Assembly: GCA_016235595.1 (NCBI GenBank)
Contig: JACRJX010000008.1
Coordinates: forward strand, 105,092 to 169,091
Length of the DNA: 64,000 bases
From: Verrucomicrobiota bacterium
GTDB lineage: Bacteria > Verrucomicrobiota > Verrucomicrobiia > CAIQCK01
Direction: 5' to 3'
This document shows, piece after piece, positions 6,597-45,756 of the stretch (position 1 is its first letter; every line of letters begins with the position of its first letter). The translations under genes were made by a program, and so were the position numbers. The notes beneath the pieces were generated by a model. That model saw only the letters and a list, made by a program, of their open reading frames with translations. It was not told the origin of the DNA and did not search any database.

Positions 6597-6606
6597 GGGG
6601 CGGAGA

Positions 6607-6641
6607 GATCAGAGATCAGAAGTCAGAGGTCAGTGGTCAGA
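6607..6641. repeat. Solo array of five degenerate heptamers (gatcaga gatcaga agtcaga ggtcagt ggtcaga)
   Basis: 7-nt periodicity read directly, starting just after the stop codon at 6596. Confidence 0.8.
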
Positions 6642-6828
6642 GTTGGGGAAGGCTTTGGAAAAACAGGCCGGAATCCTCCGGCAGCGCGAGTCCGTGCGAC
6701 GGGGTAGGGCGAGCCGTCCCTGGCGAGCCGTTTTGCTTCTGAAATGCGTGGGCTGCGGCTCAGCGGGACGCTTCGCCCTGCCATCCTGACCGCCCTCAAA
6801 CCCCGCCTCGGCGGCGCTGATTTTTGTT

Positions 6829-27117: not shown

Positions 27118-27208
27118 GTGATGGGTGATTGGTAATTCGTAATTCGTCATCGTCGCAAGCGGACACCAGATCACGAACCACGAACCACGAGTTACGAATT
27201 ACGGATCA
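27118..27208. repeat. Inverted arrays of degenerate heptamers filling the ATPase-permease spacer
   Basis: Arm 1: gtgatgg gtgattg gtaattc gtaattc gtcatcg. Arm 2: cgaacca cgaacca cgagtta cgaatta cggatca. 'gtaattcgtaattcgt' matches the reverse complement of arm 2 'gtaattcgtaactcgt' at 15 of 16 positions. Confidence 0.85.
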
Positions 27209-30633: not shown

Positions 30634-32442
30634 TTGAAAACGGCTATCTCAATCCAATGCGGATTGGGACTGCTGCTCAGCGCGCTGCCATTCTACGCAA
30701 CCGGCTGCGGTTCCTCCGTTGCGTCCGGCGGTAAGCCCGGTGAAATGGTCTATTACACCGAAGGCGGCGACATCAAGGGCTTCGATCCCGTCCGTGCCAG
30801 CGACGTAGACACCGCATTGGCGGTTTGCAAGATCTACGAGGGCCTCGTCGAATACGATTACCTCTACCGGCCCTACCGGGTCGTGCCGGTGCTCGCCGAG
30901 TCGCTGCCGGAAGTTTCCCCCGACGGCCTGACCTATACGTTCCGCATCAAGAAGGGCGTCCGCTTCCAGGACGACCCTTGCTTCCCCGGCGGCAAAGGCC
31001 GCGAAGTCACTGCGGAGGATTTCATCTACAACTTCAAGCGGCTGATGGACGCGAAGAACCTCGCCACCGGTTCATGGGTTTTCGCCGGCCGCGTCGTCGG
31101 CGCGGACGCATGGACCAAGGCCAGCGAGGATCGCAGCAAGCCGACCGATTACTCGCGGCCCATCCCCGGTTTTGAGGCGCCCGACCGCTATACGTTGCGC
31201 ATCCGGCTGCTGGAGCCGTATCCGCAACTGCTCTGGGTCCTGACGATGCAATATACCTTCGTCATGCCACGCGAGGCCGTCGAGTTCTACAAGGACGACC
31301 TTCTCAACCATCCCGTCGGCACCGGCCCGTACCGGCTCAAGCGCTGGCAGCGCAACTATCGCATGGAGTTCGAGCGCAACCCGACCTTTCACGGCCAGCT
31401 CTATCCGAGCGAAGGCGCGCCGGGTGATCGCGAGAAGGGCCTGCTCGCCGACGCCGGCAAGCCGCTGCCGTTCATTGACCGCGTCATTTTCTACAACGTT
31501 CGCGAGTATTACACATGGTGGCAGATGTTCCTGCGTGGCCAGATTTTCACCGTCGGCATCAGCAAGGACTACTTCAACAAAGTCGTCAACACCGACCTCG
31601 ATCTGACGCCTGACATGGTCAAGCGCGGCATCCTGCTCCGCAAGGAGCCGCAGATGGATGTCTATTACCTCGGCTTCAACTGGGAGGACCCCGTCGTTGG
31701 CGGCGGCAAGACACCGGAGGAGGCTGTGCGTCATCGGAAGCTGCGCCAGGCCATTACCTGCTCGTTCAACCAGGAGCAGATCAAAGAAACCTACGCCGGC
31801 CGCATGATTCCATCCTGCGGTCCCATCACGCCCGGCACGACCGGCTACGACCCGAAGAAGACCTACCCGTGGCGATTCAATCTCGACCTCGCGCGCAAGC
31901 TGCTCGCCGAGGCAGGCTATCCCGACGGCAAGGACGCCCGCACGGGCAAGCGGCTGCACCTCTCGCTCGACATGGGCGGCGCGGGTGATGCCGAGGCGCG
32001 CCAGTTGGGTGAGATGTATGTCAACTTCGCGCGCCAGATCGGCGTCGAGATGACCATCAACTTCTCGCTTCAGCCCGAGCACTGGCGCAAGCTCGAGCGC
32101 AAGGAAACGCAGATGTTCAGCGCCGGTTGGGTGATGGATTACCCCGACGCGCAGAACGTTCTGCAACTCTGGTATGGCCCGAACGAGTCGCCCGGCGTCA
32201 ACCACTGCAACTACAAGAACCCGGAGTTCGACAAACTGTACCGGAGCATCCTGACGATGCAGGACTCGCCTGAACGGACGGCAATCTACCAGAAGATGGC
32301 GGACATGGTCGTGGAGGACTGCCCCAGCGCCTTCATGTTCCACCGCCTCATCTACGCGCTATTGCGCGACTACGTGGAGAATTTTAAGCCGCACGATTTC
32401 CCGTATCCGAACGTGAAATTTTACAGGGTTCGTCCGCACTGA
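30634..32442 (+). CDS. ABC transporter substrate-binding protein, family 5 (peptide/nickel, OppA/DppA-like)
   Basis: 602 aa with lipoprotein-like N-terminus (…YATGCGS). Typical SBP_bac_5 length, followed by the permease and ATPase genes. TTG start. Confidence 0.88.
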   Translation: MKTAISIQCGLGLLLSALPFYATGCGSSVASGGKPGEMVYYTEGGDIKGFDPVRASDVDTALAVCKIYEGLVEYDYLYRPYRVVPVLAESLPEVSPDGLTYTFRIKKGVRFQDDPCFPGGKGREVTAEDFIYNFKRLMDAKNLATGSWVFAGRVVGADAWTKASEDRSKPTDYSRPIPGFEAPDRYTLRIRLLEPYPQLLWVLTMQYTFVMPREAVEFYKDDLLNHPVGTGPYRLKRWQRNYRMEFERNPTFHGQLYPSEGAPGDREKGLLADAGKPLPFIDRVIFYNVREYYTWWQMFLRGQIFTVGISKDYFNKVVNTDLDLTPDMVKRGILLRKEPQMDVYYLGFNWEDPVVGGGKTPEEAVRHRKLRQAITCSFNQEQIKETYAGRMIPSCGPITPGTTGYDPKKTYPWRFNLDLARKLLAEAGYPDGKDARTGKRLHLSLDMGGAGDAEARQLGEMYVNFARQIGVEMTINFSLQPEHWRKLERKETQMFSAGWVMDYPDAQNVLQLWYGPNESPGVNHCNYKNPEFDKLYRSILTMQDSPERTAIYQKMADMVVEDCPSAFMFHRLIYALLRDYVENFKPHDFPYPNVKFYRVRPH

Positions 32443-32445
32443 GGT

Positions 32446-32515
32446 GTGAATCGTGAATCGAGACTCGTGAATCGTGAATCGTAATTAGTAACTCGTAATT
32501 CGTAACTTGTGATTC
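32446..32515. repeat. Array of 10 degenerate heptamers (gtgaatc / gtaattc / gtaactc type), left arm
   Basis: Read directly. It starts 4 nt after the SBP stop codon and ends just before the four-helix-bundle ATG. Confidence 0.9.
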
Positions 32516-32517
32516 GC

Positions 32518-32967
32518 ATGGAAACGGCAGCGAAAAAATACCGAGGCTTTGAAGAGCTTGATGTGTATCAAGCGGCACGAGAGTTTCGGAAGAAAATGTA
32601 TGATGTGACCAGGCACCTGCCAGACACGGAGAAGTATGGACTTGCCGGCCAGATTCGCCGGGCGGCGGTTTCGCTCACGAACAATATCGCCGAAGGTCAT
32701 GGACGCTTTCATTACCTCGACAACATCAAGTTCGTGCTCGTTTCTCGCGGTTCTCTATGTGAACTGGTAGACGACTTGAACACGTGCGAGGATGAACGTT
32801 ATCTATCGCAGGACGAAGTCGCCGCCTTTAAACATGAAGCGGAGCGTTTGATGCAATTGATGAATGGTTACATCCGATATTTGCGCGACCAAAAGGCCGG
32901 CGCAGCACTTCAGATTCACGAAGACGCCGCGCCCTACGGCTCCGAATGTGCGGAGTTGCCTGAATAA
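32518..32967 (+). CDS. Four-helix-bundle protein (23S rRNA intervening-sequence protein family, TIGR02436-like)
   Basis: 'FEELDVYQAAREF...', 'GLAGQIRRAAVSLTNNIAEGHGR' and 'RGSLCELVDDL' are the family hallmark blocks. Confidence 0.85.
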   Translation: METAAKKYRGFEELDVYQAAREFRKKMYDVTRHLPDTEKYGLAGQIRRAAVSLTNNIAEGHGRFHYLDNIKFVLVSRGSLCELVDDLNTCEDERYLSQDEVAAFKHEAERLMQLMNGYIRYLRDQKAGAALQIHEDAAPYGSECAELPE

Positions 32968-32981
32968 GCAGAACGGCATCA

Positions 32982-33037
32982 CGAGTCACGGATTACAAAT
33001 TACGAATTACGAACCACGAGTTACGATTCACGAATCC
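32982..33037. repeat. Array of 8 degenerate heptamers in inverse orientation (cgagtca cggatta caaatta cgaatta cgaacca cgagtta cgattca cgaatcc), right arm
   Basis: Reverse complement of the left-arm repeat type. It ends 9 nt before the permease ATG. Confidence 0.9.
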
Positions 33038-33045
33038 CCCCACCC

Positions 33046-34017
33046 ATGGCTGCCTACATCATACGCCGATTGTTCTCCGTGATTCCGATCACACTCGGCG
33101 TGCTGTTGTTGGTGTTCCTGATTTATCGCGTCATCGGCGGCGATCCGGCGGTGCGGCTTGCGGGCAAGAACGCGACACCGCAAAAAATTGAACAGATCCG
33201 AAAACAGTTCGGCTACGACAAACCGAAGTTCTTCAACTGGCAGGAAGCGGCGAAAACAGGCCGGCCGACGGCGGTGTTTGATGCGCAATTCTGGCAGATT
33301 GTCCGGCAGTTCGCGCAGCTCGACTTCGGCAGGTCGCTCCAGAGCAACCAGCGCATCTCGCGTATGATAGCCGACGGCGTTGTGCCATCGCTCTGCATCA
33401 CCACGCCCATTTTTGTCATCGAACTCTTCGTCGCCGTCGCGCTGGCGCTGCTATGTGCGTTCTACCGGAACTCATGGATTGACCGGACGTTCGTTGTCAT
33501 CTCCATCATCGGCATGAGCATCAGTTCGCTCGTTTACATCATGCTCGGACAATACTTTTTTGCCTTCGAGCTCGGCTGGTTCCCGGTGTGGGGATTCGAG
33601 AGTGTCCACTACGTGCTGTTGCCGGTGGCCATCGGCATCGTTTACAGCCTTGGCGGCAGCCTGCGGTTCTACCGCACCATCATGCTCGACGAGATGTATC
33701 AGGACTACGTCCGCACCGCGTTCGCCAAGGGTGCCTCGCAGCGGCAGGTGCTCTTCAAGCACGTCCTGAAGAACGCAGCCATCCCGATCCTGACCAACGT
33801 CGTCGTCGCCATCCCGTTCCTCTACACCGGCTCGTTGATGCTGGAGAGTTTCTTCGGCATCCCTGGTCTCGGGCGCATGACCGTGGACGCCATCTATACC
33901 GGCGACGAACCGGTCTTGTTTGCCATGGTGTTCATCGGCTCGGTCATCTTTGTCATCGCGAACCTGATCACCGACCTTTGCTACACCTGGGCCGATCCGC
34001 GCATCCGACTGCAATGA
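33046..34017 (+). CDS. Peptide ABC transporter permease (OppB/DppB-like)
   Basis: 'MAAYIIRRL...IPITLGV' N-terminus and a BPD_transp_1 EAA-like loop (YVRTAFAKGASQRQVLFKHVLKNA). Confidence 0.92.
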   Translation: MAAYIIRRLFSVIPITLGVLLLVFLIYRVIGGDPAVRLAGKNATPQKIEQIRKQFGYDKPKFFNWQEAAKTGRPTAVFDAQFWQIVRQFAQLDFGRSLQSNQRISRMIADGVVPSLCITTPIFVIELFVAVALALLCAFYRNSWIDRTFVVISIIGMSISSLVYIMLGQYFFAFELGWFPVWGFESVHYVLLPVAIGIVYSLGGSLRFYRTIMLDEMYQDYVRTAFAKGASQRQVLFKHVLKNAAIPILTNVVVAIPFLYTGSLMLESFFGIPGLGRMTVDAIYTGDEPVLFAMVFIGSVIFVIANLITDLCYTWADPRIRLQ

Positions 34018-44927: not shown

Positions 44928-45632
44928 ATGTCCACCGCGACCGCCAGTGACGCCAGCGGACTCCAGGCGCGCGAGCTCACGCGCGATTACCCGACGCGCG
45001 CCGAGCCGTTGCGCATTCTGCGCGGCGTCAACCTCTCTCTCGCCCGCGGCAACGCGCTCGCCGTCACCGGACCTTCCGGTTCCGGCAAGAGCACGCTGCT
45101 GCACGTCTTCGGCGCGCTCGACCGGCCGACCGCCGGTGAGGTGCTCATCAACGGCCGCAATCCGTTTGCGCTGCCGGAGCCGGAGTTGGCCGCGTTTCGC
45201 AACCGCGAGATCGGCTTCGTTTTTCAAGAGCACTACCTGTTGCCGCAATGCTCCGTTTTGGAGAACGTCCTTGTGCCAACCCTCGTCGCGCCCGACGCCG
45301 ACGCCGGCGTCGCGGAGCGCGCGCGAATGCTGCTCGATCGCGTCGGCCTTGCCCGCCGGCTTGATCATCGCCCGGCGGAACTCTCCGGCGGCGAGCGACA
45401 GCGCGTCGCCATCGCCCGCGCGCTCATCAACCGGCCCACGTTGCTGCTCTGCGACGAACCAACCGGCAACCTCGACCGTGTCACCGCCCGTGCGGTGGCC
45501 GACGTGATTCTCGAAATGGCGCGCGCCGAAAACGCCACGCTGATCGTAGTGACGCACAGCGCCGAGCTGGCCGCGCGCCTGCCAAAGAGGATGGAACTCG
45601 TGGAAGGAAAGCTGGAGGAAGGAAATGGGTGA
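44928..45632 (+). CDS. ABC transporter ATP-binding protein (LolD/MacB-type)
   Basis: '[11 protein letters not shown]', '[15 protein letters not shown]' and '[12 protein letters not shown]'. Confidence 0.92.
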   Translation: MSTATASDASGLQARELTRDYPTRAEPLRILRGVNLSLARGNALAVTGPSGSGKSTLLHVFGALDRPTAGEVLINGRNPFALPEPELAAFRNREIGFVFQEHYLLPQCSVLENVLVPTLVAPDADAGVAERARMLLDRVGLARRLDHRPAELSGGERQRVAIARALINRPTLLLCDEPTGNLDRVTARAVADVILEMARAENATLIVVTHSAELAARLPKRMELVEGKLEEGNG

Positions 45633-45756
45633 ATCGGGATTAGTAACTCGTAATCCGTAATTCGTGATTCGTTAGTCGTTGGTCATGCGAGTGAGCGTTC
45701 CGAACCCCGAATCACGAGTCACGAGTCTCGAATCACAAATCCCGAGCCCCGAATCC
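45629..45756. repeat. Inverted arrays of degenerate heptamers filling the ATPase-permease spacer
   Basis: Arm 1: gtaactc gtaatcc gtaattc gtgattc gttagtc gttggtc. Arm 2: cgaatca cgagtca cgagtct cgaatca caaatcc cgagccc cgaatcc. Central loop of about 16 nt between the arms. Confidence 0.85.

Follow-up and report, generated by a model that had tools for sequence, protein, structure and literature searches.

We show that a gene for a four-helix-bundle protein of the PF05635 family, together with the inverted arrays of short tandem repeats that enclose it, forms a unit that is gained and lost at the junctions between cistrons, that the gene is kept by selection, and that the unit degrades into gene-less hairpins. 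The unit lies in a 64,000-nucleotide stretch of DNA from a Verrucomicrobiota bacterium (hereafter the window; contig C38:105092-169091 of genome G000), at the boundary between the solute-binding protein (SBP) gene and a permease gene of an opp/dpp-type operon. A first-pass annotation of the window had suggested that it might be an insertion in an mRNA resembling the intervening sequences (IVSs) of 23S rRNA, and this suggestion is borne out in that the element has the architecture of an rRNA IVS bearing an open reading frame (ORF) and is located in an mRNA operon. We regard its identity as an insertion cassette as highly probable. To the fuller explanation, an rRNA-IVS-like insertion cassette in mRNA operons whose arms fold and may be processed by RNase III, we assign a probability of about 0.55. 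The source genome is a metagenome-assembled genome (MAG) of 6.65 Mb in 48 contigs, with 61% G+C and 5.6% contamination, and its relatives are designated G001 to G010.

Architecture and distribution of the cassette

The cassette measures about 600 bp and consists of a 5′ array, a PF05635 gene and an inverted 3′ array. On the forward strand, the 5′ arm (32446-32516) comprises ten tandem heptamers of the GTGAATC/GTAATTC/GTAACTC type, in which G is commoner than C and which run in the order GTGAATC (twice), GAGACTC, GTGAATC (twice), GTAATTA, GTAACTC, GTAATTC, GTAACTT and GTGATTC. One nucleotide past this arm lies the ATG of the gene for the four-helix-bundle protein P0001 (32518-32967, forward strand), which is the only ORF in the cassette and whose start codon is separated from the top of the 5′ arm by 1-2 nt in every ortholog. 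The 3′ arm (32978-33036, forward strand) holds eight heptamers of the reverse-complement type (ATCACGA, ATTACGA and similar units), recognized from the sequence and from its pairing with the 5′ arm. Both arrays were called as period 7 by Tandem Repeats Finder (TRF). Sequence and TRF therefore confirm the earlier description of a spacer filled by ten heptamers, a four-helix-bundle gene and eight reverse-complement heptamers, apart from the length of the protein, which had been given as 150 aa and is 149 aa.

Both host genes are transporter genes read from the forward strand. The upstream one (30634-32442) encodes a family-5 solute-binding protein of the opp/dpp type (SBP_bac_5, PF00496, E = 1e-70) and ends in a TGA at 32440-32442, leaving 3 nt between the stop codon and the 5′ arm. 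The downstream one (33046-34017) encodes an OppB-type permease (PF00528, PF19300), with its ATG 9 nt past the 3′ arm. Relative to the empty alleles described below, and in agreement with the predicted fold, the whole insert spans 32443-33041 of the forward strand. Unlike the IVSs of 23S rRNA, which occupy helix 25 or 45, the cassette thus lies between the protein-coding cistrons of an mRNA, those of an SBP_bac_5 and a BPD_transp_1 protein, and an Rfam scan of 32000-33500 detected no rRNA or other family, the only match being a chance hit to the glycine riboswitch, whose 17 bits fall below the gathering score of 110.

The two arms, 59-61 nt long and about 78% complementary, are terminal inverted repeats that can form an extended stem around the S23p-family ORF. 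In the predicted RNA fold of 32436-33050 they constitute the closing stem, with a free energy of -235.5 kcal/mol against -185.2 ± 4.4 kcal/mol for dinucleotide shuffles (z = -11.5), and the arm-arm duplex has an energy of -72.3 kcal/mol against -23.4 ± 4.7 kcal/mol for shuffled 3′ arms. The proposal that the arms are able to pair as a long imperfect stem around the gene therefore stands well beyond the shuffled controls. In this prediction the gene sits in a loop of about 460 nt above a stem of about 60 bp, at whose base lie the SBP stop codon and the permease ATG.

P0001 matches PF05635 over the entire profile (positions 1-106 of 106; E = 1.9e-29, 102.5 bits against a cut-off of 33.8) and TIGR02436 with E = 3.3e-27 (94.9 bits against a cut-off of 24). 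The nearest solved structure, PDB 2GSC, is XCC0516, a four-helix-bundle pentamer from Xanthomonas (phmmer E = 5.3e-15, residues 2-119), a relation of sequence only. The protein is 149 aa long in all three orthologs, retains an acidic C-terminal tail in them (QIHED.APYGSEC.ELPE), and has a ratio of nonsynonymous to synonymous substitution rates (dN/dS) of 0.05-0.10 against them, values which indicate that it is under purifying selection and hence functional. PF05635 was the only family detected in P0001 by profile search, and the protein showed no HUH tyrosine transposase motif. An identity as Avd, the accessory protein of diversity-generating retroelements (DGRs), was considered and rejected, as NF033474 scored 16.4 bits against an equivalog cut-off of 80 and the neighbours are transporter genes, with no adjacent reverse transcriptase or template/variable repeat.

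A census shows that the arms are not peculiar to this locus. G000 has three PF05635 genes, each of which stands between inverted heptamer arrays with a unit of its own: the GTGAATC type in the window, AGAGGTC/GACCTCT on contig C35 and GATTTTG/CAAAATC on contig C28. The cognate arms of these three paralogs form duplexes of -54 to -72 kcal/mol, as against -9 to -25 kcal/mol when the arms of different paralogs are mixed. Within the same class, 25 of 30 PF05635 loci, from 24 relatives, were scored as armed, and nearly every lineage has its own unit; ten more distant relatives of P0001, nine of them from other phyla, were also scored as armed. The supposed co-localisation of four-helix-bundle genes with heptamer arrays is thus met with in 3/3 cases in G000 and in 25/30 in the class, and the data support the arms as a consistent attribute of the PF05635 gene family. 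The design is also carried by unrelated operons and by convergent gene ends. Period 7 is common and not obligatory: P0001 relatives of about 50% identity in Bacteroidota and Phycisphaerae have arms of 8-9-nt units, and one PF05635 gene of G008 (C55:3960-5300, L054) is armed with a 6-nt unit, CTCTTG/AGAGCA. At another G008 locus (C80:6971-7854, L058), a PF05635 match limited to profile positions 1-37 is followed by alternating GGTTGAG and CTCAACC arrays, in at least three rounds and up to where the contig stops, which gives the appearance of a broken cassette whose arms have been amplified.

Gain, loss and decay at cistron junctions

We compared the orthologous SBP/permease junction in ten relatives and G000 and found the cassette in four genomes, a clean spacer of 4-6 nt in six and a gene-less hairpin in one. 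The orthologous 149-aa gene and its arms fill the junction in G000, in G007, which belongs to the same genus, and in G009, which belongs to another; the junction of G003 is filled as well, with the contig ending inside the cassette. In G001, G002, G004, G005, G006 and G010 the SBP stop codon is followed by cgcgcc, cgcacc or gccg and then by the permease ATG, without any repeat (empty allele, TAGcgcaccATG), and this short junction is presumably translationally coupled. The hairpin, in G008, is built of another unit, with four copies of GTAATGC and four of GCATTAC.

Occupancy is also reciprocal. G002, with an empty opp junction, has a P0001-like gene of 150 aa with GTGATTG/GTAACTG arms between two other genes, and the matching site in G000 (C47:229202-229366) is a plain 17-nt spacer. 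Three further cassettes of congeners (in G005/G007, G006 and G003) map to repeat-free sites of G000, one of which has an overlapping ATGA stop/start there. The element is therefore present or absent at orthologous sites and occupies different sites in related genomes, and the comparison of orthologous opp operons accords with the idea that the arms may be the footprint of a mobile or recombinogenic cassette, a unit gained and lost among relatives. It shares this behaviour with transposable elements of the insertion sequence (IS) or miniature inverted-repeat (MITE) type, but no target-site duplication was found at five sites, and the sole ORF encodes a four-helix bundle, not a transposase.

The permease tree places the empty G005 as sister to the filled G000, with the filled G007 outside them (support 95/91). 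Although G005 is the closest relative of G000 in the genomic background, it shows a local cluster of private substitutions at about 32415-33270, a pattern that would fit loss of the cassette through replacement by an empty allele via homologous recombination rather than through excision. As a separate observation on the downstream host gene, in-frame insertions past residue ~72-76 lengthen the permease orthologs of OppB type by about 33 aa in G001 (L039) and about 146 aa in G006 (L040), so that their open frames measure 358 and 471 aa, respectively, vs 323 aa in the window.

Two further junctions of the window carry inverted heptamer hairpins of the GTGAATC family that lack a gene. One (27118-27208, reverse strand), with 5+5 units, lies between genes for an ATP-binding cassette (ABC) ATPase and an FtsX-type permease; the other (45629-45756, forward strand) lies between genes for an ABC ATPase and a MacB-type permease. 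Both had been reported in the first-pass annotation, and both are real and sit at cistron junctions of ABC-transporter operons. The site orthologous to the first is occupied differently from one relative to another: G002 and G004 have a GTAATGC-type hairpin; G007 (L063) has a hairpin with about 20 units per arm vs 5 in G000, its flanks being 95% identical and its loop conserved; the full four-helix-bundle cassette is found in G008, where each arm counts about ten AGCTATC units; and in G006 an AGCTATC hairpin has lost the gene except for the first 26 nt of its ORF, which remain in the loop. The deletion in G006 is bounded by two ACTCAAAG direct repeats. Judged by its sequence, the G006 hairpin is a deletion derivative of the cassette, and the retention of these 26 nt therefore implies that the decay of cassettes has given rise to at least some gene-less hairpins. 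The earlier view that the two hairpins of the window are empty versions of the opp cassette consequently holds in part: a relation between cargo-bearing and cargo-less forms exists, as the G006 relic and the full cassette of G008 attest, but the window hairpins themselves were not shown to derive from the opp cassette.

At the 45629-45756 junction, a hairpin is found in all eight relatives recovered, in three repeat families, one of which is an octamer. In G001, G004 and G006 (L073-L075), a hairpin of 8-nt units, GGAGTGTT/CACTCCA., with a conserved loop, ATGAGATGACACAAATTGCTGCCCAA, replaces the heptamer hairpin. At 45629-45640 of the window and in its orthologs (L072-L079), the first unit of the hairpin takes in the ABC ATPase stop codon in several genomes, as in GGGTGAatc, so that the host gene ends on a codon provided by the repeat. 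Gene-less hairpins of GTRAYTC units are also present or absent among G000, G005 and G007, with clean empty sites at C41:143526 and C46:142587.

Folding of the arms and competing explanations

A scan for promoters and terminators inside the cassette found no promoter-like or terminator-like site. Because it has neither of its own, the cassette is inferred to rely on host transcription and to be transcribed within the host operon. Once the 3′ arm is transcribed, the two arms would form an imperfect stem, about 60 bp long, with the gene looped out, and at its base the stop codon of the upstream gene would come to lie next to the start codon of the downstream one. Since its start codon abuts the 5′ arm, the passenger gene could be translated mainly before the stem closes. 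The long duplex is a plausible substrate for RNase III, which would be the most probable agent of cleavage by analogy with the ORF-bearing 23S rRNA IVSs of Coxiella and Leptospira, and G000 has an rnc gene for this enzyme (C27:174316-174720). Cleavage would split the binding-protein and permease messages and either free or silence the passenger mRNA, and in separating the messages it would allow the insert to be tolerated inside the operon. Alternatively, the folded stem could merely juxtapose the stop and start codons. That RNase III processing actually occurs is possible, and we put its chances somewhat short of even.

Several observations weigh against the IVS-like explanation. Monophyly of the filled genomes is rejected on the permease tree, and the history of the junction appears to mix vertical descent, loss and recombination, insertion events being deduced rather than observed. 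The comparison of filled and empty alleles at five sites revealed no target-site duplication, the short spacer being replaced rather than split, and we found no insertion mechanism, transposase or other insertion enzyme for the cassette. P0001 is acidic (pI 5.4), unlike the basic, nucleic-acid-binding Avd. Moreover, 37 armed stems show no excess of G·U pairs on the sense strand (mismatches: 41 G·U, 67 A·C and 70 other), and there is no covariation among the arms of orthologous cassettes, since non-cognate arms of orthologs pair equally well or better; the 5′ arm of G007, for instance, pairs better with the 3′ arm of G000 than with its own. In these respects the arms look more like decaying inverted copies than like a selected RNA helix. 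Given that there is neither G·U excess nor arm covariation, selection on the RNA stem is therefore not demonstrated.

The same observations on mismatches and covariation speak for the main rival explanation, in which the arms operate at the level of DNA. On that account, the arms are element ends moved or maintained via DNA hairpins, cruciforms or quasi-palindrome template switching, the RNA stem is incidental, and the length of the arrays is set by replication slippage. The rapid change in unit number is in keeping with it, both in the cassettes, where the 5′/3′ arms have 10/8, 11/8 and 5/4 units in three orthologs, and in the hairpin whose arms count 5 units in G000 as against about 20 in G007; so are the internal deletion bounded by short direct repeats and the presence or absence of gene-less hairpins between near-identical genomes. 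However, a purely symmetric DNA structure needs no polarity, and the polarity of the arms is fixed with respect to transcription: G exceeds C in the 5′ arm of 26 of 29 cassettes (p = 1.5e-5), and, read in the host sense, 9/9 gene-less hairpins from co-directional settings start with the GTRAYTC arm, which indicates a strand-specific constraint. Cassettes also lie nearly always downstream of a co-directional gene (25 of 28 PF05635 loci), and they have no associated nuclease or recombinase. We consider a DNA-level role as the sole explanation of the arms to be unlikely, albeit a serious competitor to the IVS-like explanation.

Another explanation draws on the REP and REPIN elements (repetitive extragenic palindromic sequences) that accompany a REP-associated tyrosine transposase (RAYT) gene, as reportedly described by Nunvar in 2010 and by Bertels and Rainey in 2011. 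Each four-helix-bundle protein would act in trans on its own repeat arrays, whether to bind, to spread or to maintain them, and the armed gene would be the master copy on which the gene-less arrays depend. As in REPIN/RAYT systems, a single-copy gene is flanked by inverted short repeats whose family is dispersed without the gene elsewhere in the genome, with one gene per repeat family. Among about 120 clear period-7 arrays in G000, the three commonest heptamer families correspond to the three arm types, with about 34, 21 and 13 arrays, the first ('opp') class being somewhat over-inclusive, with about 22 of its 34 arrays unambiguous, and no other unit reaching more than three arrays. This coincidence has a probability of about 0.03 even if the arms had been drawn by family abundance. 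Many of the arrays span the entire intercistronic spacer, within a few nucleotides of the stop and start codons, in a classification of placement from which in-ORF arrays were left out, as the crude gene calls over-extend ORFs through arrays. Kindred proteins, furthermore, carry kindred units, such as GTGAATC/GTAACTC for P0001 and GTGATTG/GTAACTG for its paralog in G002, but shared descent of gene and arms accounts for such a match without recognition. Action in trans finds no support in two relatives: G008 has GTAATGC hairpins, yet none of its ten PF05635 genes is armed with GTAATGC (in a genome that is 85% complete), and G005, which is without a P0001 ortholog, has retained, and even enlarged, its GTRAYTC hairpins at most sites. 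The protein is also acidic and has no known catalytic motif; unlike a RAYT, it is a four-helix bundle, and its repeats are tandem heptamers, not palindromes of 20-40 nt. We therefore hold that the REPIN/RAYT-like explanation is rather improbable.

Several heptamer arrays in G000 stand without an inverted counterpart or in a single orientation. A solitary AGAGGTC array of 5.6 copies, the arm unit of the C35 cassette, lies in the window at 6604-6642 (forward strand) with no inverted partner nearby. The longest heptamer array of the genome (C39:423475-423617), with about 20 copies of ACGTTTC, lies between convergent genes and has no inverted partner within 1.5 kb. Solitary AATCCAA arrays in a single orientation recur along C28:57445-60567, C28:81091-110669 and C6:6764-7493; one AATCCAA array is the 3′ arm of the C28 four-helix-bundle cassette, whose ORF apparently reads through the arm before reaching a stop codon.

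The hairpin might also have evolved in place as a host regulatory structure that sets the ratio of binding protein to permease, with the gene as a passenger, in the manner of the REP stem-loop between malE and malF of E. coli that Newbury reportedly described in 1987. Like that system, the cassette places a stable stem-loop precisely where the binding-protein cistron of an ABC operon gives way to the permease cistron, and the other ABC junction of the window keeps its hairpin in 8/8 relatives. Unlike the malE-malF element, however, the cassette carries a gene and is absent from close relatives. Six relatives, including the closest, have the bare spacer of 4-6 nt, the same design recurs in unrelated operons and at convergent gene ends, and the passenger gene is under purifying selection. 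These points leave an origin as a regulatory hairpin with very little likelihood. A chance resemblance or an assembly artefact, to which tandem repeats in metagenome bins such as this contaminated, fragmented MAG are prone, is of negligible probability, as independent assemblies produced by other projects contain the same cassette at this junction and the statistics against shuffled sequences are strong.

Relation to known elements and significance

The closest parallels to the IVS-like cassette are the ORF-bearing IVSs of 23S rRNA. In Coxiella burnetii, the 23S rRNA IVS carries an S23p-family gene in a 28-bp stem, with tandem heptamers ahead of the ORF, and its first repeat is the site of RNase III cleavage (PMC4990558). 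As in the IVSs of Leptospira and Coxiella (PMC4990558), a PF05635 protein is encoded in the loop and terminal inverted repeats close a long stem; as in Coxiella, tandem heptamers stand directly upstream of the ORF start, the size is in the range of about 430-600 nt, and the element would be transcribed within its host RNA. There are also differences: the arms of the cassette are about 60 nt long and consist wholly of 8-10 repeat units, vs a stem of 28 bp in Coxiella; its ORF is under purifying selection, while that of Coxiella is decaying; and excision by RNase III is known for the Coxiella IVS and hypothetical for our cassette.

The arms also recall the intergenic heptamer arrays of other bacteria, namely the cyanobacterial short tandemly repeated repetitive (STRR) sequences, the GGGAATC arrays of Xanthomonas and Nostoc (PMC4692102) and the TAACTGA arrays of Beggiatoaceae (PMC4679880). 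All share period 7, arrays of about 4-5 units, a position between co-directional genes a few nucleotides from the stop or start codon, and a biased orientation. The arrays of the latter two studies (PMC4692102 and PMC4679880), however, stand alone, without a link to PF05635 and without inverted pairs enclosing a gene, and PMC4679880 contains none of the terms 'four helix', 'S23' and 'intervening sequence'. With Avd, which is pentameric, P0001 shares the fold of the same Pfam superfamily, a four-helix bundle, but it is acidic rather than basic and its gene lies apart from any DGR component. A PF05635-family gene has also been described inside cas operons, and in the searchable literature we found no description of an armed PF05635 cassette in mRNA operons.

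It is tempting to speculate that PF05635 genes with inverted arms of short tandem repeats are the autonomous form of a widespread class of operon-dwelling elements, that the repeat hairpins and arrays of cistron junctions, including the excess of heptamers, are their decayed or dependent derivatives, that each protein recognises its own unit, much as a RAYT does its REPINs, and that rRNA IVSs are copies that landed in rRNA. Taken as a whole, this scenario is a long shot, and we offer it as a tentative framework.

S23p/IVP proteins and the IVSs of rRNA have remained without a known function or origin for about 30 years, and the over-representation of heptamers in bacterial genomes is likewise unexplained; the locus described here links heptamers with the S23p family. 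It also provides a natural series of states at single junctions, comprising empty, gene-bearing, deletion-derived and gene-less hairpin forms. This series opens to test how a 600-bp insert can be harmless in a translationally coupled operon, whether RNase III processes such mRNAs, and what role the four-helix-bundle protein plays. For genome annotation, our findings suggest that many 'intergenic repeats' may be what is left of such cassettes.

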